Assembly: GCA_022483465.1 (NCBI GenBank)
Contig: JAKVNF010000004.1
Coordinates: 307,713-371,712, forward strand
Origin: Lachnospiraceae bacterium
Lineage (GTDB): Bacteria > Bacillota > Clostridia > Lachnospirales > Lachnospiraceae
Direction of reading: 5' to 3'
DNA: 64,000 bases
Positions 6,301 to 64,000 of this stretch are shown here, one piece after another (within the stretch, counting starts at the first letter, position 1; every line of letters starts with the position of its first letter). Position numbers and translations under genes: made by a program. The notes beneath the pieces were generated by a model, which saw only the letters and a list, made by a program, of their open reading frames with translations, made no database searches and was not told the origin of the DNA.

Positions 6301-6324
6301 AGTGCCTCCAATGCTGACTTTCTT

Positions 6325-46518: not shown

Positions 46519-47094
46519 CTACTGCGCAGTCCCGGTGCCGAGGAGCTGGAGCTCTGCCGCATGAGCCTGCATGCCCGCAATGCAAATCTGCGCGATCTCC
46601 TTCACATCCTTCCCCAGCATGGCGCAGCCTGCGGCGATGATGTCCCGGCTGCAGCCCGCGGCGAACTTCTTGTTCTTGTACTTCTTCATAAAACTGGAGA
46701 TCGTCAGGTCCGTGATGCCGCCAGGGCGCATTCTCGCGCAGGCCTGGATGATGCCCGAGAGCTCATCGCAGGTGAAGAGGCACTTCTCCATCTCGGTTTT
46801 GGGCTCCACGTCGTTCACGATCGTGTAGCCGTGGCTTAGGATCGCCCGGATGTCCTCCTCGGGAACCCCCTTTTCCCGCAGCGGCTCCTCGGTGAACTGC
46901 AGGTGTTCCTCCGGGTGCTTCTCGTAGTCGTAGTCGTGCAGGTATCCTACCGCTGCCCAGTGGTCCGGATCCTGTCCGTAGACCTTTGCGAGGGCCTCCA
47001 TGCATGCCGCCACGTTTGCCGCATGGAGCCGCAGATGTTCCTCTGTCACCATCTCGTCATTGATCTTCTTCGCCTGTTCCAGTGTAAACATCAT
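46519..47094 (-). CDS. HD-domain metal-dependent phosphohydrolase
   Basis: 191 aa with H...HD (EEHLRLHAANV ... GYLHDYDY), typical of small HD/HDIG hydrolases. Confidence 0.7.
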   Translation of the reverse strand: MMFTLEQAKKINDEMVTEEHLRLHAANVAACMEALAKVYGQDPDHWAAVGYLHDYDYEKHPEEHLQFTEEPLREKGVPEEDIRAILSHGYTIVNDVEPKTEMEKCLFTCDELSGIIQACARMRPGGITDLTISSFMKKYKNKKFAAGCSRDIIAAGCAMLGKDVKEIAQICIAGMQAHAAELQLLGTGTAQ

Positions 47095-47109
47095 GCTGCC
47101 TCCTCTTCT

Positions 47110-48408
47110 CTATGCGCCGCTCTTTCCCTGCTCTTCCCCGCGGCGGATCTTTTTCACGAGATCCGCCGCAAGGCGCGCATCCTCCGGCTTTGCCTGCCCG
47201 TCATAGCGGGCGGCCAGGTAGAGGGCGCGGAGCTGTTCCTCCTCCGGCTGTTTTCCCCGGAGGTGTTCCTGTTCTTTCAGGATCTCGGCGCTGGTCCTGG
47301 AGGGATCCAGCTTGGTTCCCTGCTCCTTCAGATACCGCAGGTACTTCCGGTACTCTCCCCGGACCCGGTCCGCCGCCTGTCTTCCCACAAGGCGCGGCCG
47401 AAGGTTCTTCTGCCGCTTCTGCCCGGACACGGGGAGCTTCTCCTCCCGCAGGGGCTCCGGAGTGAGCCCCTCCCACTTGGCCCCGGCATTGGCCGAGAGA
47501 AACCGGTAGATCAGGGCCGCCGCAAGGGCAAGGAGCACAAACGGCAGGATCTGCCGCAGAAGGAGCAGAAACGGAGAGGCCTCCCGGGCGGTCTGCTGCA
47601 CGCCGTTCACCTCCCCGAGCGAGGTCAGCTGCTCCGCAAGCACCTGATCCGGGGCCGTCAGGGTTCCGACATCCGGGAACAGCCGGGACACCACCCAGAC
47701 GATCCCGTAGCAGATCCCCCAGAGGATCCAGAGAAGGCACAGCAGCACCGGGACGATGACCCGGTTCCACAAAAAGGAGAGCGCGGCCGCCATCGCATGG
47801 CGGGCCGCCGGGGTGGCAAGAACAAGCGCCGCCGCGGTGGGGATGCCAAGCAGCACGGCATTGACCCCTGCAAAACCGGTCTCTGCGGCCGCTGCATCGG
47901 GAAGCCGCAGGATTCGAAGCAGCAGGACCGCCGCAAACAGGTGGATCAGCACCATCGGCACGCCGACTGCCGCAAGGGGCGAGAGGTTCCCGTCGGCAGC
48001 AAGGATCAGAAGGGCAAAGAGAAAGACGACGCACTGCACCGCAAGGTTTCGCGCCACCTTGTCCCGGTCCGGGTGCTCCCGCTTTGCCGCAAGGAGAAAC
48101 ACCGCGTACCCGCCCGCGATGCCGGCCCCGATCCGATCTGCCAGGGTGGGGAGCAGGAAGATGAGAAGTGCCGTGGCAAGAAGGACCGGCAGGAACCTCG
48201 AGAGAAGATGCAGGACCTGCTCTCTTTTTTTCTTCCCGGACTCTGTTCTTTCCGAGAAAAGACAGGCAAGGCCAAAGGCCAGGGAGAGCAGAATCAGGGC
48301 AGCAAAGGAAGTCCCGGTACCCCCGCCACGGGCAGGGATCACCATCCCCGCGATGGAGTAGTACAGGGAGAGATCATTTGCCATCCGCAGTGCCTGCATC
48401 ACAAACAT
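47110..48408 (-). CDS. Polytopic membrane protein with a DUF4129-like C-terminal domain (third gene of the MoxR operon)
   Basis: Many TM segments, then the cytoplasmic tail RVRGEYRKYLRYLKEQG...SAEIL...LRALYLAARYDG, which resembles DUF4129. It overlaps the DUF58 gene by 10 nt. Confidence 0.6.
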   Translation of the reverse strand: MFVMQALRMANDLSLYYSIAGMVIPARGGGTGTSFAALILLSLAFGLACLFSERTESGKKKREQVLHLLSRFLPVLLATALLIFLLPTLADRIGAGIAGGYAVFLLAAKREHPDRDKVARNLAVQCVVFLFALLILAADGNLSPLAAVGVPMVLIHLFAAVLLLRILRLPDAAAAETGFAGVNAVLLGIPTAAALVLATPAARHAMAAALSFLWNRVIVPVLLCLLWILWGICYGIVWVVSRLFPDVGTLTAPDQVLAEQLTSLGEVNGVQQTAREASPFLLLLRQILPFVLLALAAALIYRFLSANAGAKWEGLTPEPLREEKLPVSGQKRQKNLRPRLVGRQAADRVRGEYRKYLRYLKEQGTKLDPSRTSAEILKEQEHLRGKQPEEEQLRALYLAARYDGQAKPEDARLAADLVKKIRRGEEQGKSGA

Positions 48409-49472
48409 GGCTTTTCCTCTTCTGCCGCAAGAACCAGAAGTTCCGCCCCCGCCCGGGCGGCCCGCCTGGCAAAGTCAGACACCGAGTCATCCTGCCGGTG
48501 CAGGGTGACGAGAAGGATTCCAGTCCCCTGGCCGCAGCGCGCAAGGCAGGCGTTTCGCATCTCCTCCCCGGAGACCCGGTCCGTGTACTGCGCCCGGCCG
48601 AGGCCCTCCAGGATTCCCTCGAAGTGCTTTCTGCCGCTCCCCTCCGGGATCCATCCGTAGTCCTTTGTGCCGCCAAGAACCGCGGCATTCATCGAGAAGG
48701 CATAGGGAGTTCTCGCCTTTTCGAGGCACTCCAGAACGCCCCGGGCAAGGGAAAAGGCGGTCTCCACCAGGTCCGCATCAAAGAGCGCCCCCCGGGAATC
48801 TGTGTCCACCAGAACGATTGCCCTTGGCATAGCCGTGTGGTCGGGATTGCGCACCATCAGGCCCCTGCCCTGGGCGCTTCTTGTCCAGGAGATCTGCTTC
48901 ATGGGCTCCCGACCCGTGTACTCCCGAAAGCCCACCGTCAGCACCGGGTCCTCATAGAGAAAGCGTCGCACGGACACCTCCCCCAGAAAGCCGCCGACGG
49001 CCCGGGAGAGAGAGGGGCTTTTGACCGCCCGGGGCCAGATGACAAGCTCCCGGCCCTCGCTCTTTCCAGCCTGCCGCTGCTCCCGAAGGCCCAGAAAGTC
49101 TCCGGTCATCAGAGAAAAGGCGGGGAGCCGGTAGCAGCCCCGCCGCGCCGCCTCCGCCGGGATCCGGACCTCGCGCTTTGTCCGCGGGCCGATCCAGATC
49201 CGGAAGTCAAAGACCCGCTCCTCGGTGAAGCGAAGCGGGCTGCTCCCTTTCGCCACGATGCTTCCCGGGGTGTACTGGCAGATGTGTACGTAGGAGCGGG
49301 GAAGGATGCCGGTGTTGGTCACCGTATACAGCAGGGAGAACGTCTCCCCCTGCTCCAGGATTGCCCGGTCCGTCCGGACCGAGGCGCCGACCTCCTCCGG
49401 AGCCCGGTCGACGGACCAGTACTCCAGGATGAGCGCGGCGAGCACGAGAAACAGGAGAAACAACAGGATCAT
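48399..49472 (-). CDS. DUF58-domain protein (MoxR-associated)
   Basis: An N-terminal TM segment and its position directly after a MoxR ATPase. It carries the conserved REY/REYxxGD-like motif (FREYTGREPMKQISW). Confidence 0.75.
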   Translation of the reverse strand: MILLFLLFLVLAALILEYWSVDRAPEEVGASVRTDRAILEQGETFSLLYTVTNTGILPRSYVHICQYTPGSIVAKGSSPLRFTEERVFDFRIWIGPRTKREVRIPAEAARRGCYRLPAFSLMTGDFLGLREQRQAGKSEGRELVIWPRAVKSPSLSRAVGGFLGEVSVRRFLYEDPVLTVGFREYTGREPMKQISWTRSAQGRGLMVRNPDHTAMPRAIVLVDTDSRGALFDADLVETAFSLARGVLECLEKARTPYAFSMNAAVLGGTKDYGWIPEGSGRKHFEGILEGLGRAQYTDRVSGEEMRNACLARCGQGTGILLVTLHRQDDSVSDFARRAARAGAELLVLAAEEEKPCL

Positions 49473-49482
49473 GGCATGCTCC

Positions 49483-50433
49483 TCAGACCTTCCCCTCCAG
49501 GGGCACCTGCACCCCCGCGAGAAGATCCGCGAGGAACTTTTCCGCCCGTCCGCTTCCCGCGTCCGCGCCCGCTGCGATCCGGTGCAGCAGCACGTAGGGG
49601 GCCACGTACTTTACATCCTCGGGGACGGCATAGTCCCTTCCGGCAAACAGGGCTGTCACCTGTGCCGCGGCGTAGAGAGCCCGGGTGCCGCGGACGCTGA
49701 CCGGGGTCACCGCCGCCTGCTCCTGCCTGGTCGCCTCCACGATGTCGAGAAGATACCCGCAGACCTCCTCCGTCATCCGCACCTCCCGGTAGGCGCGGCG
49801 AAGATACGCCGCATCCTCTTCGCTGATCACCCGGTGCACCTTCGCAAGAAGCTCCGTTGCGGGGCCGCCCCGCAGAATCCGCTCTTCCTCCTCCCTGGTG
49901 GGATAGCCCAGGGACAGGCGCATGAAGAACCGGTCCACCTGGGCATCCGGCAGCGGGAAGGTGCCGTAGGACTCCAGGGGGTTCTGCGTCGCCATGACAA
50001 GGAACGGCTCCGGCACCGGGTAGCTCGTCCCGTCCACGCTGATCTGGTGCTCCTCCATGACCTCCAGCAGGGCGGACTGGGTGCGAGGCGTTGCCCGGTT
50101 CAGCTCATCCGCCAGCACCACGTTGGCAAAGAGCGGACCCGGGCGGAACGAAAAGTCCGAGGTCTTCTGGTTGAAGAAGTGGATGCCCGTCAGATCCGAG
50201 GGCAGAAGGTCCGGGGTGAACTGGATGCGCCGAAAGCTCCCGCCAGTTGCCGCCGCAAAAGTCCGAAGGAGCATGGTCTTTCCGGTGCCCGGCGTGTCCT
50301 CCAGCAGCACGTGTCCCCCGCAGAGAAAACAGGTGAACAGGAGCGAGATCTGCTCCTGCTTTCCCAGAATGACACTGCTGCAGCAGTCCACCACCGCATC
50401 CCTGCACCGTTGATATCGCCCGACGTCCACCAT
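49483..50433 (-). CDS. MoxR-family AAA+ ATPase
   Basis: The start was refined to MVDVGRYQRC (ATG 50433, RBS GAGGAGAG). Walker A EDTPGTGKT, Walker B VVLADELNRA, and the QFTPDLLPSDLTG motif. Confidence 0.9.
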   Translation of the reverse strand: MVDVGRYQRCRDAVVDCCSSVILGKQEQISLLFTCFLCGGHVLLEDTPGTGKTMLLRTFAAATGGSFRRIQFTPDLLPSDLTGIHFFNQKTSDFSFRPGPLFANVVLADELNRATPRTQSALLEVMEEHQISVDGTSYPVPEPFLVMATQNPLESYGTFPLPDAQVDRFFMRLSLGYPTREEEERILRGGPATELLAKVHRVISEEDAAYLRRAYREVRMTEEVCGYLLDIVEATRQEQAAVTPVSVRGTRALYAAAQVTALFAGRDYAVPEDVKYVAPYVLLHRIAAGADAGSGRAEKFLADLLAGVQVPLEGKV

Positions 50434-50507
50434 TTTTCTCTCCTCGCGCCTGCCTGCGCCCATTTTTTCCGATTGTACTGCGGCGGTGCATTTTCGTTGT
50501 GAAGAAA

Positions 50508-50544
50508 ATGCGAAAAGCCCGCAGGGGATCCTTCCTCTGCGGGC
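50508..50544 (-). terminator. Rho-independent terminator after the epimerase gene
   Basis: Stem agcccgcag / ctgcgggct. On the minus strand it is followed by TTTTCGCATTTTC. Confidence 0.65.
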
Positions 50545-50549
50545 TCTTC

Positions 50550-51647
50550 TCAGCGCAGTTCCTTCAGATAGCCTTCCTCCACACCGCGGATGCCCATGCC
50601 GGGGTCATCGCAGACCTGAATGTCCTTCTCTGCAAAGACCGCGCCGCCCAGCACCGGGTCCTCCCGGCACAGGACCGGGCCGTCCAGGTCGATCCGGGTG
50701 ATGGTGTCGGTCGCGCAGGCGAGCTCCACCGCCGCATTCACGGAGATCTTTGCCTCCAGCATGCAGCCGATCATGCACTCGCAGCCGTAGACCTTCGCGG
50801 CCGACACGATCTGCAGGGCGTTGTAGAGGCCGCCGCACTTCATGAGCTTGATGTTCACCATGTCCGCCGCGTGCTTCTGGAAGATCCGCACCGCATCCTG
50901 CGGGGAGAACACCGCCTCGTCGGCGAGCACCGGCACCGGGCTGTTCTCGGTGACGTACTTGAGCCCCGCAAGGTCCGCCGCGGGGACCGGCTGCTCCACC
51001 AGCTCCAGGTGGAGATTCTCCTGCTCCATGTCGGAGAGGATCCTGAGCGCCTGCTTTGGTGTCCAGGCCTGGTTCGCATCGATCCGGATGCGGACGTCCT
51101 CCCCCACGGCCTTCCGCACGGCGAGGAGCCGCCTGGTGTCGAGAGAGGGATCCACGCCGACCTTGACTTTCAGCGTATCATACCCCCTGGCGACGGCGGT
51201 CCTGGCATCCTCTGCCATCTCCTCCGGCGAATTCACCGAGATCGTGATGTCGGTCTCGATCCGGCTTCTGGCGCCGCCCAGCATCCGGTACACTGGAATC
51301 TGGAAGCGCTGGCCGTAGAGGTCGTAGAGCGCCATGTCGACGGCGGCTTTCGCACTTGAATTGTGGACCACGGCGCGCTGCACCTTTTGAAGCAGCGGCT
51401 CCAGGTTCTCCACCTCTTCGCCCAGGATAGCCGGGATCAGGTGATCCCGGAGGGCCCCCACAATGGCCCCCGTCGTGTCGCCGGTGATGACGCCGGTGGG
51501 CGGCGCCTCTCCCCAGCCCTTTTCTCCGGTATCGGTGTCCACTTCCACCACCACGTCCCGCACGCTGTCCACCCGGCGAAGGGCCGTCTTGAATGGCACC
51601 CGGAGCGGAACCTCCATCGTGTACAGTCTGACCTTACGAATCTTCAT
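50550..51647 (-). CDS. Dipeptide epimerase (L-Ala-D/L-Glu epimerase, enolase superfamily, YkfB-like)
   Basis: The start was refined to MKIRKVRLYTMEVPL (ATG 51647, RBS GGAGGAA). MR/MLE pattern with KVKVG, IRIDANQAW, LVEQP, LADE and KLMKCGG. Confidence 0.85.
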   Translation of the reverse strand: MKIRKVRLYTMEVPLRVPFKTALRRVDSVRDVVVEVDTDTGEKGWGEAPPTGVITGDTTGAIVGALRDHLIPAILGEEVENLEPLLQKVQRAVVHNSSAKAAVDMALYDLYGQRFQIPVYRMLGGARSRIETDITISVNSPEEMAEDARTAVARGYDTLKVKVGVDPSLDTRRLLAVRKAVGEDVRIRIDANQAWTPKQALRILSDMEQENLHLELVEQPVPAADLAGLKYVTENSPVPVLADEAVFSPQDAVRIFQKHAADMVNIKLMKCGGLYNALQIVSAAKVYGCECMIGCMLEAKISVNAAVELACATDTITRIDLDGPVLCREDPVLGGAVFAEKDIQVCDDPGMGIRGVEEGYLKELR

Positions 51648-51681
51648 CGGTTCCTCCAACGAACTTGTTTTCTCTGCGATA

Positions 51682-52584
51682 TCATTTCGAAGCAAGTGGA
51701 TACAGACTTCCCGCCTTCTCCCACTTCCCGTCAAGATCCTCCCGGTACCCCGGTGCCCCAGGAACAAGGCTTGCGTACACGCAGCCAAAGTCCCTTGCGT
51801 ACCCGGTGCTGTGCAGGTATCTGCCCTCTCCCAGGTACATAGCCACGTGTCCCTTCATGAAAAGAAGGTCTCCGGGCTTTTTGTCCTCCCAGGGGATCTC
51901 GTGGATCGGATACTCCGGTCGGATCTGGGCATCCCGGTAGATCAGGATGCCGCAGAGCCGGTAGGCCATGGAGACGAGTCCCGAGCAGTCGATGCCGGCG
52001 CCGCTCGTGCCGCCCCAGCGGTACTGCACGCCCAGATAGCTCTCTGCCATCTCCACCACCTGCTTTCGGAGCGTCTCTTCCGGGATGGCGGTGAGGTTTT
52101 TCTGGTGCAGAAACCAGTCATCTCCGCCCTGGTTGAAGTACCCGTCGCTGTCCCGCCGTGCCATCAGGCTTGACGCAGCAAGGTACCCGGTTTTGCCGTC
52201 TGCTGCGCGCACCGGAAGATACCCCGCTTTCTCCTCTCCCGTCTTCTCGAGAATGCTCCCGCGGGAGTAGGTGGCAAGAAGCGCGCCCTGGACCTTCGGT
52301 GCGGCCAGAAGATCCGCCATGCGCTTTCTGACAACCAGTGCGTCCCCGGACGTCTCCCGACGGATGAGCTCCCGCGCCGTCACCGGCTTGAGCACCCCGG
52401 GATCGATCCAGCCCCGGTACCCGTAATAGGTCTCCACCGGGACCCTGCCGTTCCTGTCCTGTCTTGCCTCCAGAAGCCGAACCGCCCAGCCCGAGAGCAC
52501 CTCGTCCGCGATAGTTCCATCCTCCTCATACAAAAAGGCCTCCGGCACCTTCACCAGTGCCAGCCCGCTGCCATATTCCATCAT
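51682..52584 (-). CDS. NlpC/P60 (C40) gamma-D-glutamyl-L-diamino-acid endopeptidase with N-terminal SH3-like domains (YkfC-like)
   Basis: Catalytic block YRWGGTSGAGIDCSGLV ... GHVAMYLG. It is paired with the dipeptide epimerase as in ykfABCD-type murein peptide recycling loci. Confidence 0.85.
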   Translation of the reverse strand: MMEYGSGLALVKVPEAFLYEEDGTIADEVLSGWAVRLLEARQDRNGRVPVETYYGYRGWIDPGVLKPVTARELIRRETSGDALVVRKRMADLLAAPKVQGALLATYSRGSILEKTGEEKAGYLPVRAADGKTGYLAASSLMARRDSDGYFNQGGDDWFLHQKNLTAIPEETLRKQVVEMAESYLGVQYRWGGTSGAGIDCSGLVSMAYRLCGILIYRDAQIRPEYPIHEIPWEDKKPGDLLFMKGHVAMYLGEGRYLHSTGYARDFGCVYASLVPGAPGYREDLDGKWEKAGSLYPLASK

Positions 52585-52650
52585 GCCTCCTTGATTCTGT
52601 GCCGTATGTCCCACAGTATACCACGGGAAACCCTGGAAAGAGGTTCCCAC

Positions 52651-52943
52651 TGGCGTCCAGATATGGTAGGATGTACCGGATACACTGACTTACCCCGTGG
52701 CGAGCCACGGGGGTTCGCACGCGAGGGATTCTGGTTGGGGAAGATGTTGGTCTTCCACACGGAGGTATTTCGTGTCGTACTCACAGACAAGCTGCTTTGG
52801 GACAGGTATTTACTCCGGAGCCAGCCATCTAAACCTCTGACCGGTCAGCTCAGAGCTGACGGTACTTTACTGGGTTCAATTCGTTCTCTGTTTCAAGAAC
52901 CGGGCGCTAAGTCAAACGCCCTGCTATGGTAAAAGCAGAAAGA
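52651..52943 (-). ncRNA. Candidate TnpB-associated guide RNA scaffold (omega/reRNA-like), hypothetical
   Basis: A 290-nt non-coding tract starts at the stop codon of the TnpB-like gene. It contains several stable hairpins: 52693-52712 (CCCCGTGGC/GCCACGGGG), 52840-52863, 52902-52921, and 52932-52955, which spans the stop codon. No ORF or terminator-only explanation fits. Confidence 0.3.
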
Positions 52944-53844
52944 TTACACTGCTTTATCCAACTTAATGCCGGAATTACAAATCGTTAAGTGATTCTGGAT
53001 GATGGTGTTGATACATTGCTGGTGCATCTGCCAAAAGTGATCAAATGCTTGCAGACACCGGTTTCGGTCAATGGCTTGGAATTCGTCGTCTGCACACGAT
53101 AACAGGAAAGCTGACATAATGTCCCGCTGGACTTGCCGTCCATCCGGAAGAGAATGCCATCGTTCGTCGAGCTTCTTTTTGATGTATGCGTCAAGCATAA
53201 AATCGTACTGACTCGCTCGATAAGTCATACGTGGTACTTCATGGTAGCCGGGCCCAAATTTCTTACGAAGCTCTGCCTGAAAACCAGCAGGACTTCGCCT
53301 TAATACGGAAGCGCCAAACCGTTTCTTTTTCTTGAACTTGTGGACCGTTTTCGTTGTGCCGTCTTTTTGCGGGATCTGCGATGCTTTGTCAGATCGCTGT
53401 GCCTTTTTCTTCGACCTGTGTGCAAGTGCTGCTGTATTCGAAGGCTCCGTGATCAGGACATTGCCTAGCGAAAGCAGATGATTGGCAGCTTCCTGGTTGG
53501 CATACAGTCTGGTTGCGGCTTCCTTTCTGCAGAGTTCCCGATATTTATACAGCCTCTTGCGATTGGATTTCGACACCTTCCACTTGCCATGTGTGCCGTT
53601 CTTATAAGTACCGTCTTTGTTGAACCGTTCCGGATTCATAGCTCTGCGGCTGGCATCCATCTTACGAAGCAGGAACTTTTTCCGCTTATCGTTTTTCTGA
53701 TATGCACCCTGATTGCGTTCTCCCAGATTGAAGAGTTCTACAGAGTTTTGAGACACAACAGCTGCTGACTGTGTTCCAATATCGCAGCCAACCCGTCCGT
53801 TTCCACGGACGACTCTCGGTCTGCCATACTTAGGAATTGACACA
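52944..53844 (-). pseudogene. tnpB: TnpB-like RuvC nuclease, C-terminal fragment (RuvC domain); the gene is split by an IS insertion
   Basis: It contains RuvC-I-like RVGCDIGTQSAAVV, RuvC-II-like NVLITEPSN, and RuvC-III-like ASQYD...RWHSLPDGRQVQRDIMSAFLL. The reading frame continues exactly from the fragment at 55341..56195 once the IS and one 7-bp repeat are removed. Confidence 0.65.
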
Positions 53845-55340
53845 TAATAAATTAATCAGTTGGCACGTAATAAATCGACTGCTATAATAGCCTTATATCT
53901 CGGATCGGAGGCAGTCGATTCATGGCTTCACCAATATATGATAGCGACCACGTTGATCATATTTTATCCAATATTTCCGTCATTTTGCCCTATGTCAATG
54001 AGCGCCAGAGACGGCTGATTATAGGAGCTCTTTCTGATGCACTGGGTTATGGCGGCAAGTCTGCGATCAGTGAAAAATGCGGTGTGACACGTAATACCGT
54101 GCGCAAGTCCGACGAAGAGTTCAAGCTCATTATCGCTGATGCTGCCGGCGAGACTTCTACTTCCACAGAGACAGAAACCAAAAGTGACGAAGCAGAAGAC
54201 TCTGGCACTGCGGATACCGATAAGGATTCTGAAATGTTGCTGGAAGCAACTCCAGAGCAGATTGTCGGGCTTTATGATGGCTCCGTCAGCCTTTCTTCAC
54301 TTGAAAGCAGACAGCGCCGCGCGGGTGGTGGCAGAAAAAGTGAAGCTGCGAAAAATCCGGAACTGATTCCTGCATTGATGGAGATCCTTGACGACTACAC
54401 CTATGGTAATCCGGAATCCGTGCTGCTTTATACAAACCTGAGTGATCGCAAGCTCTCAGCTATGCTCGCTGAGAAGGGCTATTCAGTTGGGAGAAATGTC
54501 GTCAACCGAATGCTGAAGGCACTCGGTTGGAGCAAACAACAGAACAAGAAGCTGAAGCAGGTCGGTAAGGAACATCCAGACAGAAATGTGCAGTTTGAAT
54601 TCATCAATGCAACGGGTAAAGAGGTTTTAGCTGCAGGGAATCCCATGATTTCCATCGATTGCAAAAAGAAGGAAAACATAGGAGACTATGCCAACAAAGG
54701 CAAGGAGTACAGACATAGCAAAGATCCTCGAGCGGTGCTTGACCACGATTTTCTGGATAAGGAACTTGGTCAGGTTGCACCATATGGTGTTTACGTCGTC
54801 AACAATAATACTGGGTTTGTAAATCTTGGAACCACACATGACACCTCCCAGTTCGCAGTCGCCAGTATACGTGCCTGGTGGTACACCGTTGGCAAGAACA
54901 CGTTTCCTGACGCGACCATGATTTATATCACGTGTGATGGAGGCGGAAGCAATTCCAGCCGTGTGCGAATGTTCAAGACGGAACTGGCAAAGCTGGTTGA
55001 GGAAATCGGGATTCCGATTCAGATCTCTCATTTCCCGCCGGGAACATCAAAGTGGAACAAGGTGGAGCATCGCCTTTTCTCTGAGATATCAAAAAGTTGG
55101 GCAGGTAAACCGCTAATCAGTGTTGAAACTGTAGTTCAGTTGATCGGATCAACAACTACAACAACTGGTCTGAAGGTAACCTGTCAGCCTGATTACAATG
55201 ACTATAAAACAGGTCTGAAGGCTTCTGAGGAAGAGTACGATAAAGTTGATATTGAATGGATCAATATCGGGACATCTAACAAATGGAACTACATCATTCA
55301 TGGGCTGAAAAAGGACTCGTGAATTGATCAATTTAAAGGA
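53845..55340 (+). mobile_element. ISAzo13-family insertion sequence (about 1.5 kb) inserted in the TnpB-like gene
   Basis: It is flanked by the 7-bp direct repeat TGACACA (53838-53844 and 55341-55347). The imperfect terminal repeats contain AAATTAATCA / TGATCAATTT. It has a single transposase ORF. Confidence 0.75.
53922..55322 (+). CDS. ISAzo13-family (Rhodopirellula-type DDE) transposase
   Basis: 466 aa with characteristic blocks ISIDCKKKENIGDYANKGKEY, APYGVYVVNNNTGFVNLGTTHDTSQFAV, ITCDGGGSNSSR and HFPPGTSKWNKVEHRLFS. Confidence 0.85.
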   Translation: MASPIYDSDHVDHILSNISVILPYVNERQRRLIIGALSDALGYGGKSAISEKCGVTRNTVRKSDEEFKLIIADAAGETSTSTETETKSDEAEDSGTADTDKDSEMLLEATPEQIVGLYDGSVSLSSLESRQRRAGGGRKSEAAKNPELIPALMEILDDYTYGNPESVLLYTNLSDRKLSAMLAEKGYSVGRNVVNRMLKALGWSKQQNKKLKQVGKEHPDRNVQFEFINATGKEVLAAGNPMISIDCKKKENIGDYANKGKEYRHSKDPRAVLDHDFLDKELGQVAPYGVYVVNNNTGFVNLGTTHDTSQFAVASIRAWWYTVGKNTFPDATMIYITCDGGGSNSSRVRMFKTELAKLVEEIGIPIQISHFPPGTSKWNKVEHRLFSEISKSWAGKPLISVETVVQLIGSTTTTTGLKVTCQPDYNDYKTGLKASEEEYDKVDIEWINIGTSNKWNYIIHGLKKDS

Positions 55341-56195
55341 TGACACACCCTTATCCTTCTTTGGCATAGGAGGAGCAGCAATGGTGATCAGCACAAAACA
55401 GCGGAGCTTCCCACGGATTTTCTTGCACTGAATCGCACAATAGCAGGGGCGGAAAACAGGAACAGCATTATTGGTTTCGCTGTATGTACGCACTGCCGTA
55501 TCTTCCACCTCTGGGTGTTCCATATAATCCAGCAGTGCGTTGTATTCGTCGATCAGATATTGATCATCCTTCGGGACCAGCAATGGCATCGGGTCAAGTC
55601 CATCTATATGAACCACAAGACGCTCTGTTTCCTTATCGACTTTGAGAACGATAATGCGATTGATTTCTTTCGCCCGCATTACAGGCAGATCGCCGCGCTT
55701 ATAGAAGTGGATATTCTTCCCATTGGAGTACAGGACTTTTTGAATGCCCTGCCAGATATTATCCGCACTGGTAGCAGCAAGAACAGAAGGAATCTTGTGG
55801 CCTTTTGCCGCTTCCTGCATTAATTTCTGAACCTCAGATTTTGAGATCAGAAATTGATGCTGCATTGCGGCCATCTGATTGGCAGTATGCTTTCTAGCCT
55901 CATCCAGCTGCTGATACGCATCGGATTCGGGATCCAGCTTGGCAAGATGCTGCTTCTTCCATAGGTAGTCTTTCTGAAGAGCACGATATTTCCGTGTACG
56001 CTTGAGCTGATCAATCCGTTTGCGCATGATGGCTATCGTTTCATTATCAGCTCTGCGCAGGGTATCGTTTTTGGAGAAAGTATGCCGTTTGTTGTCTTCA
56101 TCTATGTCTGCCTCCAATGCGATAACATGGCGAGGGCATAAAAGCCGATAAGCAGTACGATTCTCATTTTCCGGTCTGAAACGCTTGAATCCCAT
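55341..56195 (-). pseudogene. tnpB: TnpB-like nuclease, N-terminal fragment (285 aa; WED/REC-like region)
   Basis: The ORF from the ATG at 56195 is genuine up to ...ITIAAPPMPKKDKGVS at the IS junction. The remaining 63 codons of the tracked ORF (down to 55149) are read-through into the IS. Confidence 0.6.
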
Positions 56196-56338
56196 ATGCC
56201 GTCCTCCTGATAGAAAGGAGCTGTCTTGCTTGTTGCATTACAAATATGTCGGATTATTTTGAAGTTAAGAACACTTTTTCAAAAGGCGTTAGTAAAGATC
56301 CGGGGTGATAAGCGATGTAAAAATTTGTAGGAACATAT

Positions 56339-57294
56339 TTATACAGCAAGTAAATTCAGTTCCTTGACATCATCACAGTGATGCACTCTCTTCGGATCAC
56401 GCACCAGGAAGAGCTTCTCTGCAAGCTCATCCACCGACATCCTCATCCGGTATGCCGCACGGAATACCATGTTGTAGCGGTTCAGGTACTTGGTAGCCAC
56501 ACCGCGGTAGTCGTAGTAGCGGTTCTTGATGAAGCTGTGCAGATTGTTACAGCTTCGGATATACGTTCAGTTCCGTCCGTAAGGAAGAGGGTCCCCTTCT
56601 TAACATGACCTGTGTAGATGACGACGACATCCTCTGTGGAAGGTCTTGCACAGTTCTCTGACTTTACAACCAGATCGCCGCTTTTGCGCTGAACTGCAGT
56701 GCAGGTGCAGATCTGCTCGTCAGAAAAGCCGCGCTTAGATGCCGGAGTACCGTGCTTACGGGGCTTTCTCTTGGCGTCGGGCCCGAATTTTGTCCCTTTC
56801 TCCGACTCTGGTACGTAGGTTTCATCAGCCTCGACAACTTCCTCGACCATTGCAGGACTGACCTCCTGAAGATCCTCAATCGCCAGCATGATCTTATGCC
56901 TCATAAAGAAGAGGCTGGTATGGCTGATCCGGATATGCTGAAGATCAAGTCCATCTCTTGTGTCATCATGGGATACGCCCATAAGCGTGTCAGCAAGGAC
57001 GGTCTTCCAGACATCACTGCTGTAATGTGAGCCAGACAGAAGTGTGTTACTTGCTGTAACAAACGACTTTCCGCATGCCCGGCACAGAAATGTCTGCTTG
57101 CCATGCTTGTGACCGTTCCTAACAACATGTGAACTGGTATGGCAGACCGGACATTCCATCCGGGGAACGATCTTCACCGAAGAAGCAAACGCCTTCTCAT
57201 GGTTCAAACGGTCCATGATCTTGTTAACGGGAATCTTAAGATCCGAATCGGAGAGGTTGTTTCCTGCAGCCAGTATGCATTCGATGTTACCCAT
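56339..57294 (-). pseudogene. IS1595-family (ISXO2-like) transposase, internally deleted and frameshifted
   Basis: An N-terminal zinc ribbon (CPVCHTSSHVVRNGHKHGKQTFLCRACGKSF) and DDE region run up to ...LFLTDG. The conserved C-terminus NNLHSFIKNRYYDYRGVATKYLNRYNMVFRAAY... follows in a different frame (stop at 56339-56341), with the intervening conserved block missing. Confidence 0.7.
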
Positions 57295-57485
57295 AGTCGT
57301 GTCCTCCTGACACGACTATTATAGGTCAAGTCCTAAAAGGGCGTTGTACATTCAAATGTACAAATCCGGAAAAACTTTTGGGATCGCTAATTCCTTAACT
57401 TCCAGCGGGGTGATGACTTTACAAAGCGGCCCAGAGGCAATTCCAACGTTTTGCCTCTGGGCCGTACTTTTTCATTTTTGGAGCT

Positions 57486-57698
57486 TCAACCCTGGATGAA
57501 TGCAAGGACCTCTTCGTAAGTTTTCGTACTTTTCTTCATCGCCGTGGAGATCGCTTTCAGTGCTTTCTGCTCTTTCTTCCTCTGGAGCTCCTTCAGCCTT
57601 TTCTGCTCATCATCGTATTTCGCCTTTACTTTATCAACCGCGTCTTGCTGCTTTCTGATTGCTTCATCGATCTGGGCAAATGAACTCTGTTCTTCCAT
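57486..57698 (-). CDS. Small (70 aa) charged coiled-coil protein encoded inside the IS, downstream of the transposase
   Basis: ORF MEEQSSFAQIDEAIRKQQDAVDKVKAKYDDEQKRLKELQRKKEQKALK... starts 17 nt after the transposase stop. A 14-bp-stem hairpin (57429-57466) follows it. Confidence 0.5.
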   Translation of the reverse strand: MEEQSSFAQIDEAIRKQQDAVDKVKAKYDDEQKRLKELQRKKEQKALKAISTAMKKSTKTYEEVLAFIQG

Positions 57699-57715
57699 TG
57701 CGTAAACCTCCTCTT

Positions 57716-59428
57716 CTATTCCTCACTGCTCTCTGCAGCGGTCTGATCGTATTTCTCAAACTGATCGGCAAGCTTCTCTGCTTCCCGCTTCACAGTTCCG
57801 CTATTCATGCCAAACGCGGAAAGGATCATTTTCTGATTTTTCGTAACTGCGTAATCCATGTGATATCGGCCATCTGTGAGTTTCGTCATCTGAATCATTT
57901 CCAGCTCGGCAAGCGCACCAGGCACTGTCATGAAATTCGGGTCATCCCCATTCTTATCCTTTTGGTCTTTCAGAAGACTGTAGATTTCACTGCGGACCGT
58001 CAGTGCGAGGAATTCAATAAAAATCTTGGATGATGCGGATCCTGTCGATGCCACCCGTATCGTCGCATCCCCAAGAAAGCTCTTGTCACTTCCAAAGAGT
58101 TTTTCCGATGCATCACGGCTTTTGTAAATCCTGTAAGCAGTCACTGCATCCATTTCCTCTGACGTGATGATTGCGAAGTATCCACACGTTTTCAGCTCTG
58201 CTTCAATGACATCTGTTTTCTCCACTGCAGTCACAAAGACCTCCGGGTCTTTTGGATCCATTATGATGTCGAAGTAATTCTCATAATCCTTCGGAATCGT
58301 CACTTTCTTTCCTGTGAGCTTTTTCAGCTTTTCCCCGATTTCGGAAATTTTGTCCTCCAGAGTCTTGCGCTCTACGTGCTCCTTGAACGTGGAGTGATAC
58401 AGATGGAAATACCTCTCACGGTCCGCAAGATCAGCCTTTTCCGTCATGCCATAGACTCCACTGTTGTTGATCTTGCAATCCCGCTTTTCTTCAAACAGCC
58501 CGCGGTGCTCCAGAATCATTTTGCTGATCAGATCCTTTTGACCCTTGCACATGATTATGAAGCTCAAACCGTTTTTATCCAGATACCGCAGATTGTCTTC
58601 TGAGAAATATCCCCGATCTATGATGAACGTCGCTTTGCTATACCCATAGCCTTTTGCCTTACCAACGATGTACGCAAGCTGAGAAACATCCGGTATACTG
58701 CCGGGATACCATTCATAGAACAATGGCATCCTGTTATCCAGATCGTATCCAATCGCATAATTGAAGATCTTTCCTTTTACGCCATCCTTGGAATGCCCCG
58801 GTTCCGCCGTTTCGATATCTCCGGACTGACAGTGCTTGTTCGTCGAATCATAGGATATATTCACCTTCTGATTGTGATCTCTGTCTGCATTCCAGTCATT
58901 TAAGAATCCCTGGATCTGTTCATCCGTGATGGAACCGAGCAGATTCGAAATCGACGAATCACTGTACCGATGCATGCTGTCCGTAAACAGCGGATGGTTG
59001 AATGTGTAGATGGGATAATACAGTGCCTTGTTATCCTCTGTGACGATGGAGTATGCCATCAGATCCATGATCTTTCCGGCATCTTTTGCTTCGAAATGCT
59101 GGAGCAGTTTTTTCTTCATTTTGAGTTTTTCCATCACCTTCTGGATGATCAGAAACGCCCCAAAGTTGATTGTTACCGACCTCGTCGGATCCACCTCTTC
59201 CGGCGGATATGCCAGATCCGGGAAATAGATCATGAAGTTCTCGTTGGGGTACATCTTGTCCAACTGATCCTTTACCCGTTTTCCGATAATCTTGTGCTTC
59301 GACAGTGTATACTTTTTGTCTTTATCGTATTTTCGTTCCTCGGCGTATCGAACGTACTCAGTCCCGTTTTTAGAAAGATACGTAATGCCCTTAACGTCCG
59401 GAATGCCCACCGGCGTCGTGAGATACAT
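57716..59428 (-). CDS. IS1634/IS4-like DDE transposase (570 aa)
   Basis: The N-terminus GITYLSKNGTEYVRYAEERKYDKDKKYTLSKHKIIGK and the DDE blocks (ISYDSTN, IIDRGYFSEDN) parallel the other IS1634-like proteins in the window. Confidence 0.8.
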   Translation of the reverse strand: MYLTTPVGIPDVKGITYLSKNGTEYVRYAEERKYDKDKKYTLSKHKIIGKRVKDQLDKMYPNENFMIYFPDLAYPPEEVDPTRSVTINFGAFLIIQKVMEKLKMKKKLLQHFEAKDAGKIMDLMAYSIVTEDNKALYYPIYTFNHPLFTDSMHRYSDSSISNLLGSITDEQIQGFLNDWNADRDHNQKVNISYDSTNKHCQSGDIETAEPGHSKDGVKGKIFNYAIGYDLDNRMPLFYEWYPGSIPDVSQLAYIVGKAKGYGYSKATFIIDRGYFSEDNLRYLDKNGLSFIIMCKGQKDLISKMILEHRGLFEEKRDCKINNSGVYGMTEKADLADRERYFHLYHSTFKEHVERKTLEDKISEIGEKLKKLTGKKVTIPKDYENYFDIIMDPKDPEVFVTAVEKTDVIEAELKTCGYFAIITSEEMDAVTAYRIYKSRDASEKLFGSDKSFLGDATIRVASTGSASSKIFIEFLALTVRSEIYSLLKDQKDKNGDDPNFMTVPGALAELEMIQMTKLTDGRYHMDYAVTKNQKMILSAFGMNSGTVKREAEKLADQFEKYDQTAAESSEE

Positions 59429-59739
59429 GAATCGTCCTCCCTTCCGAAATACGAGTTATACTTTCTCACTCGTATTGTCTCACTTTTTCGTCCTAAAAGC
59501 AAGCATAGAAAAAGCCGCAAACCGTTATTTTTCAACGTTTTGCGGCTCTCGCTATTTGACTCTCACTGGATTCGAGTGAGAAGATTATTGGAAGTTCAGG
59601 TAATTATCAACCCGTTTCTTTATTAACGTCTTTTCAAAATTTCTTCATTTTGCGGGCGGCTTACCGGGGCAAGCCCCGGGGCTTGAACCCGCCGCTCGCA
59701 TTTTATGTCACAAAAACTGCCGACTGGCGGGAGGATGGG

Positions 59740-60732
59740 ATGGCGCGCAGAAAAATCACACTGGAAGAACTGCTCCGGGCAAAGCAGAAAGAGCCCTATG
59801 AGGACCAGGCAGCCTTCATCCTCGCCAGGGTCGGCGAAAAAAGACTCATTCCCATCCCCCGTTCCGGAACCAACGGCAAAAAGCCGGCGCTCTGCCTGCG
59901 ATACTGGGAGGTACTTCCGGAAACCGATCGACAGGATCTTCGGGAAGAGCTCCTCTACCAAACCGTGCCGGGAATCCGGGTGGACTACTATCTCTCCCAC
60001 CTCGAGGTCTACGAAAAGGAGCGGGCGGACGTGCGCCGCCTTGACGCCTGGCTGCGAGAGCAGAAAAACCAGGCCCCGCTCCCGATCTCGGTCAACGAGC
60101 GGAGCTTTGCAATCTTCGGGCGGGAGAAATTTCTCTCCCAGGGCGGCGGAAAGACACTCCTTGCCCACTGCGGAATCGACCCCGACCTCCTGCACATGAT
60201 CCGAACTGCGGAACCGTTTGCCGCCTATGCCGGGGACCGCACGGTTCCCCAAAATGCGCTGATCCTCGAGAACAAGGACCCCTTCTGCGGCATGCGCACC
60301 CACCTGCTCCAGGGACACCGGAACATCCTCGGCGTCCCCGTGGGAACGCTCCTCTACGGGGCTGGAAAGCGGGTCGTTGCAAGTTTTCAGGACTTTGATA
60401 TCAGCGCAGAGCCCTATCTTAAGGATCCCCGAAACCAGCTTCTCTACTTCGGCGACCTCGACTGGGAGGGGATCCTGATCTATGAGACCCTGGCAAAGTC
60501 CTTTCAGGAGGCAGCCGACAGGCTGATCCGCCCCTTTGTCCCCGCCTACCTGGCGATGCTGAAAAAGGCAGCAGTGGTTCCCTCTCTCCCCGAGACAAAG
60601 GAGGGACAGATGCGCCGGGAGAGCGGCCTCTTCTTCTCTTTCTTTCAGGAGGAGGACAGGGCGAAGATGACCGACATCCTGAATGCGGGGCGCTATATTC
60701 CACAGGAGATTCTGAACGGGAGCGACTACTGA
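59740..60732 (+). CDS. jetD: JetD/MksG-like Toprim nuclease subunit (DUF2220-type), first gene of a Wadjet-like operon
   Basis: The start was refined to MARRKITLEE (ATG 59740, RBS GGGAGGA). The C-terminal half has the topo-VI/Toprim pattern of DUF2220: ALILENKDPF (catalytic Glu), then GAGKRV and YFGDLDWEGILIY (DxD). It is about 330 aa, somewhat shorter than typical JetD. Confidence 0.65.
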   Translation: MARRKITLEELLRAKQKEPYEDQAAFILARVGEKRLIPIPRSGTNGKKPALCLRYWEVLPETDRQDLREELLYQTVPGIRVDYYLSHLEVYEKERADVRRLDAWLREQKNQAPLPISVNERSFAIFGREKFLSQGGGKTLLAHCGIDPDLLHMIRTAEPFAAYAGDRTVPQNALILENKDPFCGMRTHLLQGHRNILGVPVGTLLYGAGKRVVASFQDFDISAEPYLKDPRNQLLYFGDLDWEGILIYETLAKSFQEAADRLIRPFVPAYLAMLKKAAVVPSLPETKEGQMRRESGLFFSFFQEEDRAKMTDILNAGRYIPQEILNGSDY

Positions 60733-60733
60733 C

Positions 60734-62350
60734 ATGAAATATGACTTTCTGAAAAACTTTCCGGAGCGCATGAAGCGGGTCGGTCTCTACGCCCTGCTGA
60801 TGACAAACAGCGCCCAGAAATTTACCTGGAAGGACTTTGGCATCGAGAGCAGTGACCAGCAGCTCGTTCTGCTCTTTGCCATTCTGCTGTTCCTGATGGA
60901 ACAGTCCCTGAAAGAGGAGCCCTGCACGATGGACGACGTCGCGACCTTTGTGATGGGGCTGAACGATACCTCTCTCCACCTTCCACTCTCCAACGAGGAG
61001 AGCTATAACCTCTCCTCCTTCGTCGTGAACACGATTCTCTCCAATGACGGCAGTCCCATGTTCTTCCAGGGCTTTGACTTTGCGAAAAATGAGACGGTGC
61101 CGATCCGGATCAGCTACATCGCAAACCGCATCATCTACACCGACGCTGGTGAGCGCCGCACCTCCTACTACCTGACCGACGACGGCTACAACCTGCTCCT
61201 GGGAACCCTGGAGGTGGAGAACAACTTAAAGCTCTCGATCCACGAGATGATCTTTCAACTCCACCTGGAGAAACAGAGCTACGACAAGGCCCTGGACGAC
61301 GTTCGAAACATCTTCAACCTGATGCGCATCCAGGTACAGAAGATCCAGGAGGCCATGGTCCGCATCAAGCGCAACGCCCTGGACTATGAGATCGCAGAGT
61401 ATCGGAAGATTCTGGAGGAGGACCTGGACACCATCGACTCCACGAAGCAGAAGTTCGAGGGGTACCGGAAGAATGTCCAGGCCAGAGAGCAGGAGTTTCG
61501 GAGCATGGATGCGGTCCATTTCACAAAGGCCGAGGAGGACAAGCTCCGGGACCTGCAGGAGATCGAGAGCTATCTCTCCCGGGCTATCGACGAGTACCAG
61601 CGAATTCTCAGCAGCCATTTCGATATGCGCGCCCTCTACGACAGCGAACTCGAGAAGATCTCCGACATGGCTGCCGTGCAGCGCTTTCCGCTGCGGAGCG
61701 CTCTCTTCGAGAAGGTTCTGAACGACCCGGGCATTCTGGAAGACCTCGACCACGTCCTGTTTCCCCTGTTTGTCAAGGACCCGGAGCGGATGTTCAATAT
61801 CAACCGGGCGCTGGAGCCCCAGTCCGTCCTCGAGGAGGAACAGGAGGAGGGGGAGGCGGACACCGACGTCTTTGATGAGGAGGCATGGAAGCGGGAACAG
61901 GAAGAGGCACACCGAAAGAAGATGGCGCTCTATGAGAACTGCCTGACTCTGTTCTTTGACCTGCTGCAGGAGACGGGGCGGGTGACACTCCATGATATCT
62001 GGAAAAGGGCGCAGGAAGATACATCTCTCCTCGACATCCTGATCCCCACGCCGGAGATCTTCAAGGAGATCATGGTGGAACTCCTAAAGAGCGAGACGCT
62101 CGACATCGACGCCCTGGAGAAGGAGCGCGCTATGTACATTCAAGAGGAGAGCGGCAGCTTTGAGCTCTCCCTGATGGTGCTCCAGATTCTGGAGAAACAC
62201 CCTGACTGGAACCGCATCCACCAGGTAGAGATCTACCGGCTGGACCAGTACACCCCGGTCGTTTTCTATGATCTGCAGACGCCGGAGGGCCCTCGGACCA
62301 TCCGCTGCACCAATGTATGCCTAAAGCTTTCTGGAGGAAAGGAATCATGA
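60734..62350 (+). CDS. Kleisin-like subunit candidate (JetA/MksF position), 538 aa, largely helical with an acidic linker
   Basis: The assignment rests on position and size within the four-gene SMC-type operon and on the long coiled or helical central region. The start is 1 nt after the upstream stop. No specific motif was recognised by eye. Confidence 0.45.
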   Translation: MKYDFLKNFPERMKRVGLYALLMTNSAQKFTWKDFGIESSDQQLVLLFAILLFLMEQSLKEEPCTMDDVATFVMGLNDTSLHLPLSNEESYNLSSFVVNTILSNDGSPMFFQGFDFAKNETVPIRISYIANRIIYTDAGERRTSYYLTDDGYNLLLGTLEVENNLKLSIHEMIFQLHLEKQSYDKALDDVRNIFNLMRIQVQKIQEAMVRIKRNALDYEIAEYRKILEEDLDTIDSTKQKFEGYRKNVQAREQEFRSMDAVHFTKAEEDKLRDLQEIESYLSRAIDEYQRILSSHFDMRALYDSELEKISDMAAVQRFPLRSALFEKVLNDPGILEDLDHVLFPLFVKDPERMFNINRALEPQSVLEEEQEEGEADTDVFDEEAWKREQEEAHRKKMALYENCLTLFFDLLQETGRVTLHDIWKRAQEDTSLLDILIPTPEIFKEIMVELLKSETLDIDALEKERAMYIQEESGSFELSLMVLQILEKHPDWNRIHQVEIYRLDQYTPVVFYDLQTPEGPRTIRCTNVCLKLSGGKES

Positions 62351-63075
62351 CATTTGAACAGGAAGATGTGACACGGGCGCAGGAGCTCTTTGCCAGCCTT
62401 CTTGCCCGGCACGAGGTCCGGGAGAAGGAAGAGCCGGATCTCTACCGGAGCTATACGGAGCGCGCCGATGTGCAGACGCTGGTGCAGCAGCAGGGCGATG
62501 CCCTGGGGTGCGACATCGAGCGCTATGCAGATGTGATCTACCTCATTCCGCGGGAGGACAACCTGTATCTGGGCTTTTCCCGGCAGGAGCTCAAGAACCG
62601 GCTGTGCAGGAGTCTTGCCAAAACCGCCGACTACGACCTTGCGATGTTCGTGATCTGCGTGCTCCTCGTCGAGTTCTACGATGGGCAGGGCGCCAGTGCC
62701 AAGACAAGGGATTTTCTCCTCGCAGGGGATCTGCAGAACAAGGTCTCCTCCTATCTGCAGGAGGGTGTCGACCGGTACGACAAAAAACAGCAGAGAGAGA
62801 TCGGCATCTCGTTCTCCGGCATGCAGCATGCCTTCGAGGCGCTCAAGTCAGACGACCGGCTCACCCGGAAGAAGACCACAAAGGAGGGCTTTCTCTATGG
62901 GATTCTGCACTTTCTCGAGGACCAGGGGCTTGTCACCTTCATCGACCGGGATGAGATGATTCTCACAACCCCAAAGCTCGACCACTTCATGGACTGGAAC
63001 CTCTTAAACCGCGCAAACTTTGACCGGGTGCGCCGCGCACTCGGCAGGGAGGACGAAATCAATGAGCAGGATTAA
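62347..63075 (+). CDS. JetB/MksE-like (KITE-type) subunit candidate, 242 aa
   Basis: The start was refined to MTFEQEDVTRAQELF, with its ATG overlapping the upstream stop as ATGA. Its size and its position before the SMC-like ATPase match JetB (DUF4194). Similarity was not verified computationally. Confidence 0.45.
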   Translation: MTFEQEDVTRAQELFASLLARHEVREKEEPDLYRSYTERADVQTLVQQQGDALGCDIERYADVIYLIPREDNLYLGFSRQELKNRLCRSLAKTADYDLAMFVICVLLVEFYDGQGASAKTRDFLLAGDLQNKVSSYLQEGVDRYDKKQQREIGISFSGMQHAFEALKSDDRLTRKKTTKEGFLYGILHFLEDQGLVTFIDRDEMILTTPKLDHFMDWNLLNRANFDRVRRALGREDEINEQD

Positions 63076-64000
63076 CCGCATCCGCCTCATCAACATCAGC
63101 TACAACCATGACGCCATCCGCATCTCGGACGAGCTGCTGTCTCTAAACGGCGAGAGTACCCTGATCTCCCTGCAGAACGGAGGTGGAAAATCCGTGCTGG
63201 TCCAGCTTCTCTCCGCCCCCTTTGTGCACACCAAGTATCGAAATGCGAAGACCAGGATGTTCGCTGACTACTTCCATACCTCCCAGCCCTCCTTCATCCT
63301 GGTGGAGTGGGAACTGGATTCCCACGCGGGATACCTTTTGACCGGCATGATGGTGCGCAAAAACCCGAAGCTCGATGAGCCCGGGGCGGATCATCTCGAC
63401 ATCCTGAACCTCCTCTGCGCCTATCCGGAGGACTGTGAGCAGGATATCCAGCACCTGCCCGTCGTGGAGCGGGACGGCAAGGCCGTGCGCGTCAAGAACT
63501 GGCTCCAGTGCAAATTTTTGTTTGACCAGTACCGGAGAAATCCGGATATCGGCTTCTATACGTTCGATATGAACAACACCTCCCAGCGGCGGGACTACTT
63601 CCAGCGCCTCTCCCAGTACCGAATCAGCTATCGGGAGTGGGAGAACATCATCCACAAGGTGAATGAGCAGGAGGCGGGTCTCGGGGAGCTCTTCAAGGAC
63701 TGCCGGCAGGAGAAGGACCTGGTGGACAAGTGGTTTCTCGATGAGATCGAGAAAAAGCTCGGGCGCTCCACATCCGACGACGGCAGCGAGGGCGGCAGAA
63801 TTCGGGGATTTCAGGATCTGATGGAGAAATACATCCTGCAGTGCCAGCAGCAGGATGTCAAAATCCGCAGAAAAGAGCGGGTAGAGGCCTTTCAGCAGGA
63901 TTCCGTCGCCCTGCGGGAGCACGCCGTGGGCTGGAATCAGGCGGAAGAGGACCGGAAGGAGGCGCTCTCCCGAATTCTCGGATTCCTGCGTGCGATGGAG
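63062..64000 (+). CDS. jetC: SMC/JetC-like ABC-type ATPase, N-terminal 313 codons (continues past the right edge; not in the supplied ORF track)
   Basis: An open frame runs from the ATG at 63062, overlapping the upstream gene by 14 nt, with no stop to the window end. The N-terminal head has Walker A LQNGGGKSVLVQLL, followed by the onset of a charged coiled coil (EKYILQCQQQDVKIRRKERVEAFQQ...). Confidence 0.65.
   Translation, partial: MSRINRIRLINISYNHDAIRISDELLSLNGESTLISLQNGGGKSVLVQLLSAPFVHTKYRNAKTRMFADYFHTSQPSFILVEWELDSHAGYLLTGMMVRKNPKLDEPGADHLDILNLLCAYPEDCEQDIQHLPVVERDGKAVRVKNWLQCKFLFDQYRRNPDIGFYTFDMNNTSQRRDYFQRLSQYRISYREWENIIHKVNEQEAGLGELFKDCRQEKDLVDKWFLDEIEKKLGRSTSDDGSEGGRIRGFQDLMEKYILQCQQQDVKIRRKERVEAFQQDSVALREHAVGWNQAEEDRKEALSRILGFLRAME

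Follow-up and report, generated by a model that had tools for sequence, protein, structure and literature searches.

A nuclease-first SMC operon on a Lachnospiraceae chromosome belongs to the classified Wadjet type III

Wadjet systems and the Lachnospiraceae locus

According to three literature sources, Wadjet types I, II and III were defined by sequence or domain composition together with operon organization. Types I and II are drawn with their genes in the order A-B-C-D, and a mechanism in which DNA is extruded and then cleaved has been demonstrated for both; its authors expect it to extend to type III. A Wadjet operon from Bacillus thuringiensis, the named representative of type III, blocks plasmid transformation in Bacillus subtilis. 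The subject of this report is an operon of four genes at the end of a stretch of 64,000 nucleotides (nt) from a Lachnospiraceae bacterium (GenBank assembly GCA_022483465.1, contig JAKVNF010000004.1, positions 307,713 to 371,712 of the forward strand), which is referred to as the window. An earlier inspection of the letters of the window (the sequence-only reading) proposed a Wadjet-like operon in a permuted order, with the nuclease gene first, and considered that it might be an undescribed subtype.

The analysis covered gene content, type, the order of the genes in related loci, how well the catalytic motifs are conserved and the fold of the nuclease. The operon is a routine member of the already classified Wadjet type III and not a novel variant, and with a probability of roughly 0.9 this Lachnospiraceae chromosome carries at the locus a type III Wadjet (JetDABC) system against plasmids that is complete and intact.

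Operon organization

Four consecutive open reading frames (ORFs) on the plus strand, taken from the ORF list of the window, fill the sequence from position 59740 to the window end. Lengths are in amino acids (aa).

59730..59734, plus strand: Shine-Dalgarno sequence GGAGG, read directly, 5 nt 5' of the jetD ATG
59740..60732, plus strand: jetD (type III), 330 aa from the ATG at 59740; Toprim nuclease with an N-terminal winged-helix-like part
60734..62350, plus strand: jetA (type III), 538 aa; kleisin-class subunit with an acidic linker
62347..63075, plus strand: jetB (type III), 242 aa from the ATG at 62347; KITE-class subunit, Pfam DUF6063
63062..64000, plus strand: jetC (type III), 5' part, 312 codons in the window; SMC-like ATPase, full gene 1497 aa

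The four genes are translationally coupled: jetD and jetA are separated by a 1-nt gap, jetA and jetB share a 4-nt ATGA overlap, and jetB and jetC overlap by 14 nt. These frames and junctions are exactly those of the sequence-only reading, which had reported four tightly coupled genes with their sizes and overlaps. The motifs that it named are all present as well, namely ILENKDPF and YFGDLDWEG in the first protein, an acidic stretch in the second (EEEQEEGEADTDVFDEE in JetA) and NGGGKS in the fourth. Its estimate of about 1000-1100 aa for the complete ATPase was too low. The public contig L001 (JGI 3300046839) is identical to the window across the 4261-nt overlap and carries the whole of jetC at L001:12329-16822, which encodes 1497 aa. 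The operon ends there, and convergent pflB and pflA genes come after jetC on this contig.

The ATG at 59740 is likely the true start of jetD, because the GGAGG sequence at 59730-59734 precedes it and 18 homologues begin at the aligned position. The mechanically called jetD frame begins upstream, at a TTG at position 59650. Public gene calls give JetD proteins of 340-360 aa by way of upstream TTG codons inside or beside a hairpin at 59652-59695.

Assignment to Wadjet type III

All four proteins match the PADLOC type III models over their full length. JetD matches JetD3 (PDLC00592) at E=2.1e-102, with residues 2-329 on model positions 12-337 of 346; JetA matches JetA3 (PDLC00561) at E=3.2e-211, with residues 1-532 on positions 1-535 of 539; and JetB matches JetB3 (PDLC00572) from end to end at E=1.6e-98. 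The part of JetC inside the window matches JetC3 (PDLC00583) at E=4.5e-139, and the full protein from L001 matches the same model at E=0 (1437 bits), with residues 1-1485 on positions 1-1465 of 1471. The PADLOC models for type I and II JetD reached only E=0.004-0.05 against this JetD, and those for type I and II JetA, JetB and JetC gave zero matches to the operon proteins. The central claim of the sequence-only reading, a Wadjet (JetABCD-type) SMC-nuclease defence operon, is thus borne out.

General family collections are far less informative. JetB belongs to Pfam DUF6063 (PF19539, E=1.6e-66). The same search returned only a sub-threshold JetD_C match for JetD and no family for JetA or full-length JetC, and it found none of the families of types I and II, that is, DUF3375 (JetA), DUF4194 (JetB) and DUF3322 (the JetD N-domain). 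None of the four proteins matched a family in NCBIfam. Pfam and NCBIfam thus largely overlook type III Wadjet, which the PADLOC models detect. The sequence-only reading could not recognize the two middle proteins because Pfam and NCBIfam mostly miss type III; this failure is a property of type III and is not peculiar to this locus.

The roles proposed earlier for the four products (Toprim nuclease, kleisin, KITE protein and SMC ATPase) appear to be correct, with JetA as the putative kleisin and JetB as the putative KITE subunit on the strength of family assignment and published AlphaFold-based domain maps. The JetA profile had no sequence match in the PDB, and the JetB profile had no meaningful match there, including to solved kleisin and KITE chains. 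A single-sequence AlphaFold2 model of JetB was poor, with a predicted local distance difference test (pLDDT) score of 42.

Gene order across relatives

The idea of an undescribed Wadjet subtype, or of a related SMC-nuclease system whose operon was permuted to place the nuclease first, drew on the A-B-C-D order of types I and II and would be consistent with the silence of Pfam and NCBIfam on JetA and JetC and with the below-cut-off match of JetD. It makes gene order among relatives decisive. JetD3 relatives were encoded by at least 541 matched stretches in a scan that took one genome from each species, and 80 loci were retained. The order survey comprised 88 loci (these 80 from the genomes of different species; 5 loci were copies of the query's own), in which ORFs were called and then searched by phmmer with the four operon proteins.

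The order D-A-B-C was found in 82 of the 88 loci. Of the remaining six, four are truncated at the end of a contig, one carries jetC as two separate ORFs, and one, from Bacillus cereus, is too divergent for phmmer and is D-A-B-C by annotation. More distant relatives were found by tblastn of JetD against annotated plasmids, at 25-31% identity, on a 404-kb plasmid of Clostridium perfringens, an 898-kb plasmid of Pontibacillus and plasmids of about 0.5-0.64 Mb of the B. cereus group. The annotated operons of C. perfringens, Pontibacillus and B. cereus lie on one strand and encode, in turn, JetD, a hypothetical protein of 506-547 aa, a DUF6063 protein and a hypothetical protein of 1406-1705 aa. Of these, the loci of C. 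perfringens and B. cereus are confirmed as type III by other PADLOC sub-models. NCBI already names such genes 'Wadjet anti-phage system protein JetD domain-containing protein' and 'DUF6063 family protein'.

The order is not uniform within type III, because a linear plasmid of Rhodococcus pseudokoreensis (NZ_CP070616.1, 77 kb) carries at 1350-9687 a PADLOC type III set arranged A-B-C-D, in which JetA3, JetC3 and JetD3 are matched and JetB only marginally. The Firmicutes loci, however, are normally D-first. This variation within the type could be read in favour of a new subtype. The end-to-end matches of all four proteins to existing type III models, the prevalence of D-first among the surveyed loci and its recurrence in the B. 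cereus group, C. perfringens and Pontibacillus nevertheless speak against one. The sequence-only reading had itself stated that a common, already classified D-first arrangement would overturn its proposal, and this is what the gene-order survey and the type III assignment found. The proposal is refuted on its own terms, and we regard a new subtype as very improbable. Its description of a nuclease 'first and shorter than usual' holds for position and size but not as a departure from the family, since both are traits of type III, as is the long JetC. The nuclease-first order, the short JetD and the unrecognizable JetA and JetB are together the signature of type III in Firmicutes and not that of a new system.

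Type III is reportedly drawn with jetD first. A literature search found no text that explicitly states 'jetD first' for type III.

Several individual relatives have features of their own. On the Pontibacillus plasmid, a gene for a MerR-family regulator (L007:8408-8965) overlaps the start of jetD by 4 nt and may be a dedicated regulator of that operon; it is absent from the window. In a metagenome-assembled genome (MAG) of Anaerovibrio, jetC is split into two ORFs (L038:13310-17724), and on plasmid pA of B. cereus the annotated JetC is without its first ~120-165 model positions and is preceded by a 520-nt unannotated gap (L008:12213-12734). Decay or mis-annotation of jetC is possible in both. 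Type III operons lie on plasmids of 404-898 kb (L006, L007, L008), which far exceed the reported size limit of Wadjet targets of about 50-100 kb.

The survey also bears on whether the operon could be a housekeeping condensin of the MukBEF/MksBEF kind that organizes the chromosome and has a Toprim gene merely next to it. JetABC are SMC, kleisin and KITE analogues, and PADLOC cautions that Wadjet and Muk systems look alike. However, jetD lies 1 nt from jetA here, and the two genes are linked in all 86 of the 88 loci that show both. The proteins match JetX3 models exclusively. Furthermore, the type III operon occurs on megaplasmids and is patchy among relatives, which is typical behaviour of defence genes, and a family member from B. 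thuringiensis is reported to restrict plasmids. A chromosome-organizing condensin is accordingly a remote prospect, and the type III assignment is retained in what follows.

The JetD nuclease

The Toprim motifs of JetD, ILENKDPF (E177) and YFGDLDWEG (D239, D241), contain the residues expected of a Wadjet nuclease. Alignments of 19 and of 4 sequences, which together range from Lachnospiraceae to Bacillus, show no variation at E177, D239, D241 or E243. An AlphaFold2 model of JetD built from the 19-sequence alignment reached a pLDDT of 87.9, and its only significant fold matches in the PDB were topoisomerase VI A subunits (9o8p_A at 3.8e-4 and 1d3y at 5e-4 to 1e-3, with 258-287 columns aligned). 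Among solved structures, the sole match of the JetD profile was to MksG 8b7f, in its DxD region and at E=0.3. The model and the alignments thus point to a Toprim fold with a conserved catalytic Glu and DxD, as is characteristic of Wadjet.

The JetC ATPase, the proposed mechanism and the weight of the evidence

Not everything fits a working type III system equally well. The observations that weigh against it concern the JetABC subunits, the Walker B motif of JetC, the mechanism and the region upstream of jetD.

For JetA3, JetB3 and JetC3, profile searches detected no sequence similarity to any solved structure, type I and II Wadjet and MukBEF included, and neither full-length JetC nor the profile of its C-terminal head gave a meaningful match to solved structures. 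The Walker A motif of JetC is invariant (N39-G-G-G-K43-S, that is, NGGGKS at residues 39-44) and the SGGE signature is present. SMC proteins, MukB and type I JetC have a catalytic Asp-Glu at Walker B, and a Glu-to-Gln mutant of type I JetC is reported to be ATPase-dead and inactive. The corresponding motif in type III, assigned by its position after the SGGE signature and by its hydrophobic-strand context, instead reads hhhhD-N-P(F/I) in every one of the 76 distinct full-length JetC proteins of type III that were examined, and the Rhodococcus JetC likewise has D-N-P. In the present protein it lies outside the window:

L001:16532-16543, residues 1402-1405: Walker B Asp-Asn-Pro of this JetC

The D-loop Asp position is likewise non-acidic in type III JetC, with Asn in most Lachnospiraceae members and Ser here. 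The canonical Asp-Glu is thus missing from JetC as a family-wide property of type III, which leaves the membership of this operon unaffected. The ATPase cycle of type III JetC may differ from that of type I. The fuller proposal, that type III Wadjet runs the SMC ATPase cycle differently, by slow hydrolysis or with another catalytic base, presupposes that the motif assignment is right and that no substitute residue takes over, and it is doubtful. If true, it would bear on whether all Wadjet types are loop-extruding motors, and the locus would still be an ordinary type III. A literature search found no paper that combines JetC, Walker B and type III, and the family-wide D-N-P motif is the sole point that might interest SMC specialists. 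Wadjet-III is reported to have long coiled coils and no hinge channel, and the 1497-aa length of JetC fits such coiled coils.

According to the literature, no type III complex has been characterized biochemically or structurally, and the mechanism of this operon is therefore extrapolated. By homology with types I and II, JetC, with its long coiled coil, would assemble with the JetA kleisin and the JetB KITE protein into a dimeric SMC motor that would load on DNA and extrude loops. On a small circle, extrusion would reach completion and the motor would stall. The stalled motor would then recruit or activate JetD, the topoisomerase-VI-A-like Toprim nuclease (E177, D239, D241), which would cut the plasmid, and large chromosomes and linear DNA would be spared. 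Complex assembly, loop extrusion and plasmid cleavage by this operon are thus predicted from its relatives.

The last point concerns expression. The native region 5' of jetD has been displaced by a nest of insertion sequences (IS) of about 7 kb, and a crude consensus scan of 59300-59800 found no sigma-70-like promoter.

The upstream IS nest and hairpin

The closest relative is a locus in a Lachnospiraceae MAG (L009), whose JetD is 93% identical. Its DNA is about 92% identical to the window at 46531-52684 and then resumes directly at 59707. The segment 52685-59706 is inserted DNA, because the L009 alignment jumps from 52684 to 59707. The segment from 59707 on, including the GGAGG sequence, is conserved in L009. 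The guanine-plus-cytosine (GC) content is about 0.62-0.65 in the flanks versus about 0.45-0.50 in the nest. The features of the region are as follows, with the transposases identified by family search.

52685..59706, no strand: IS nest, ~7 kb, inserted relative to L009; its end lies 33 nt before the jetD ATG
53922-55322, plus strand: ISAZ013-type transposase
56482-57294, minus strand: IS1595/IS1-like transposase fragment
57716-59428, minus strand: IS1634-family transposase
59652..59695, plus strand: GC-rich perfect hairpin, inside the inserted block and unique in the window

Two further ORFs inside the nest, at 52944-53843 (minus strand, 299 aa) and 55149-56195 (minus strand, 348 aa), have no convincing Pfam family and may be either cargo or IS remnants.

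The observation that the operon abuts an IS was accurate, the neighbours being the IS1634-family transposase and the IS1595/IS1-like fragment. The 'GC-rich structured leader' seen in front of the operon exists as a hairpin but not as a leader of the operon. The hairpin region folds at -43.9 kcal/mol over 116 nt (z = -2.35). It lies inside the inserted block and was not found upstream of jetD in L009 or in another relative, L010; for these reasons the hairpin is inserted, IS-derived DNA rather than a regulatory leader conserved with the operon. No convincing terminal inverted repeats tie it to a particular IS, and a terminator pattern scan of 59300-59800 found none. The idea of a riboswitch or leader was dropped when Rfam gave only chance-level matches on 59300-59900 (MicF at E=0.64 and a togavirus element). 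An apparent leader can thus turn out to be IS-derived DNA.

The nest raises the question of whether a genuine type III Wadjet might be silenced or misregulated here, cut off from its native promoter and possibly decaying. The breakpoint relative to L009 lies 33 nt 5' of the jetD ATG, which together with the promoter scan is what such a reading would predict. IS activity is ongoing, because IS content differs among L001, L002 and the window, which are otherwise identical: contig L002 is without 55352-59623, and contig L001 carries one more IS1595-type copy, at 53695-53702, with an 8-bp duplication around it. The split jetC of the Anaerovibrio relative would also be in keeping with decay. On the other hand, the four ORFs are intact and of full length against the models, and 74 blocks of the public collection contain an identical JetA protein, which makes this a widespread allele. 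Moreover, IS ends often bear outward promoters, and the consensus scan was crude. A silenced or decaying operon is therefore unlikely, and an intact type III Wadjet is the preferred reading of the locus.

Comparison with known systems

The A subunit of topoisomerase VI and Spo11 share with JetD the CAP-plus-Toprim architecture and the conserved acidic Toprim residues, and they are its best structural matches. Unlike them, JetD would act as the nuclease effector of an SMC sensor and not as a topoisomerase. The overall superposition of JetD on the topoisomerase VI A subunit is poor (template modelling score, TM, ~0.3), which suggests a different domain arrangement.

The MukBEF and MksBEF condensins are alike in their three-part SMC-kleisin-KITE motor. 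They have no nuclease gene and serve in chromosome organization, whereas the operon described here has a Toprim gene 1 nt from jetA, a linkage that is conserved. A three-gene SMC operon without a nuclease is not what is found, jetD being always linked to jetA.

Wadjet type I, also known as MksBEFG and EptABCD (Escherichia coli GF4-3, P. aeruginosa, C. glutamicum and M. smegmatis), combines an SMC ATPase, a kleisin, a KITE protein and a Toprim nuclease, as this operon does, and the mechanism of extrusion followed by cleavage is presumed to be common to both; the DxD region of JetD aligns weakly to MksG 8b7f. The type I genes are ordered A-B-C-D in contrast to D-A-B-C here. The PADLOC models of type I and II JetD have 382-430 positions, and these proteins are described with DUF3322 and DUF2220, whereas the type III models have 345-350 positions. 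JetA, JetB and JetC of this operon have no detectable sequence similarity to the solved type I and II subunits. The type III JetC here is about 400 aa longer than that of type I and is of a type reported to be without a hinge channel, and its Walker B motif is D-N-P versus D-E in type I. The set of DUF3375, DUF4194, DUF3322 and A-B-C-D order that marks types I and II is not that of this operon.

Wadjet type III, the prototype of which (Doron et al. 2018) is said to come from Bacillus thuringiensis, is the closest described system. The JetD, JetA, JetB and JetC families are all present at full length in an adjacent, tightly coupled four-gene operon with the usual type III order D-A-B-C, and a short JetD (330-373 aa), a DUF6063 JetB and a JetC of about 1400-1700 aa are common to both. 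The type III copies on Bacillus and Clostridium plasmids are 25-31% identical to this one. The significance of the locus beyond annotation is slight, as the result is one further Wadjet operon of type III, in a gut or rumen Lachnospiraceae, and the annotation is useful for predicting the resistance of the organism to small plasmids. Nothing of substance separates this operon from type III, the present copy being chromosomal in Lachnospiraceae with an IS nest directly upstream.

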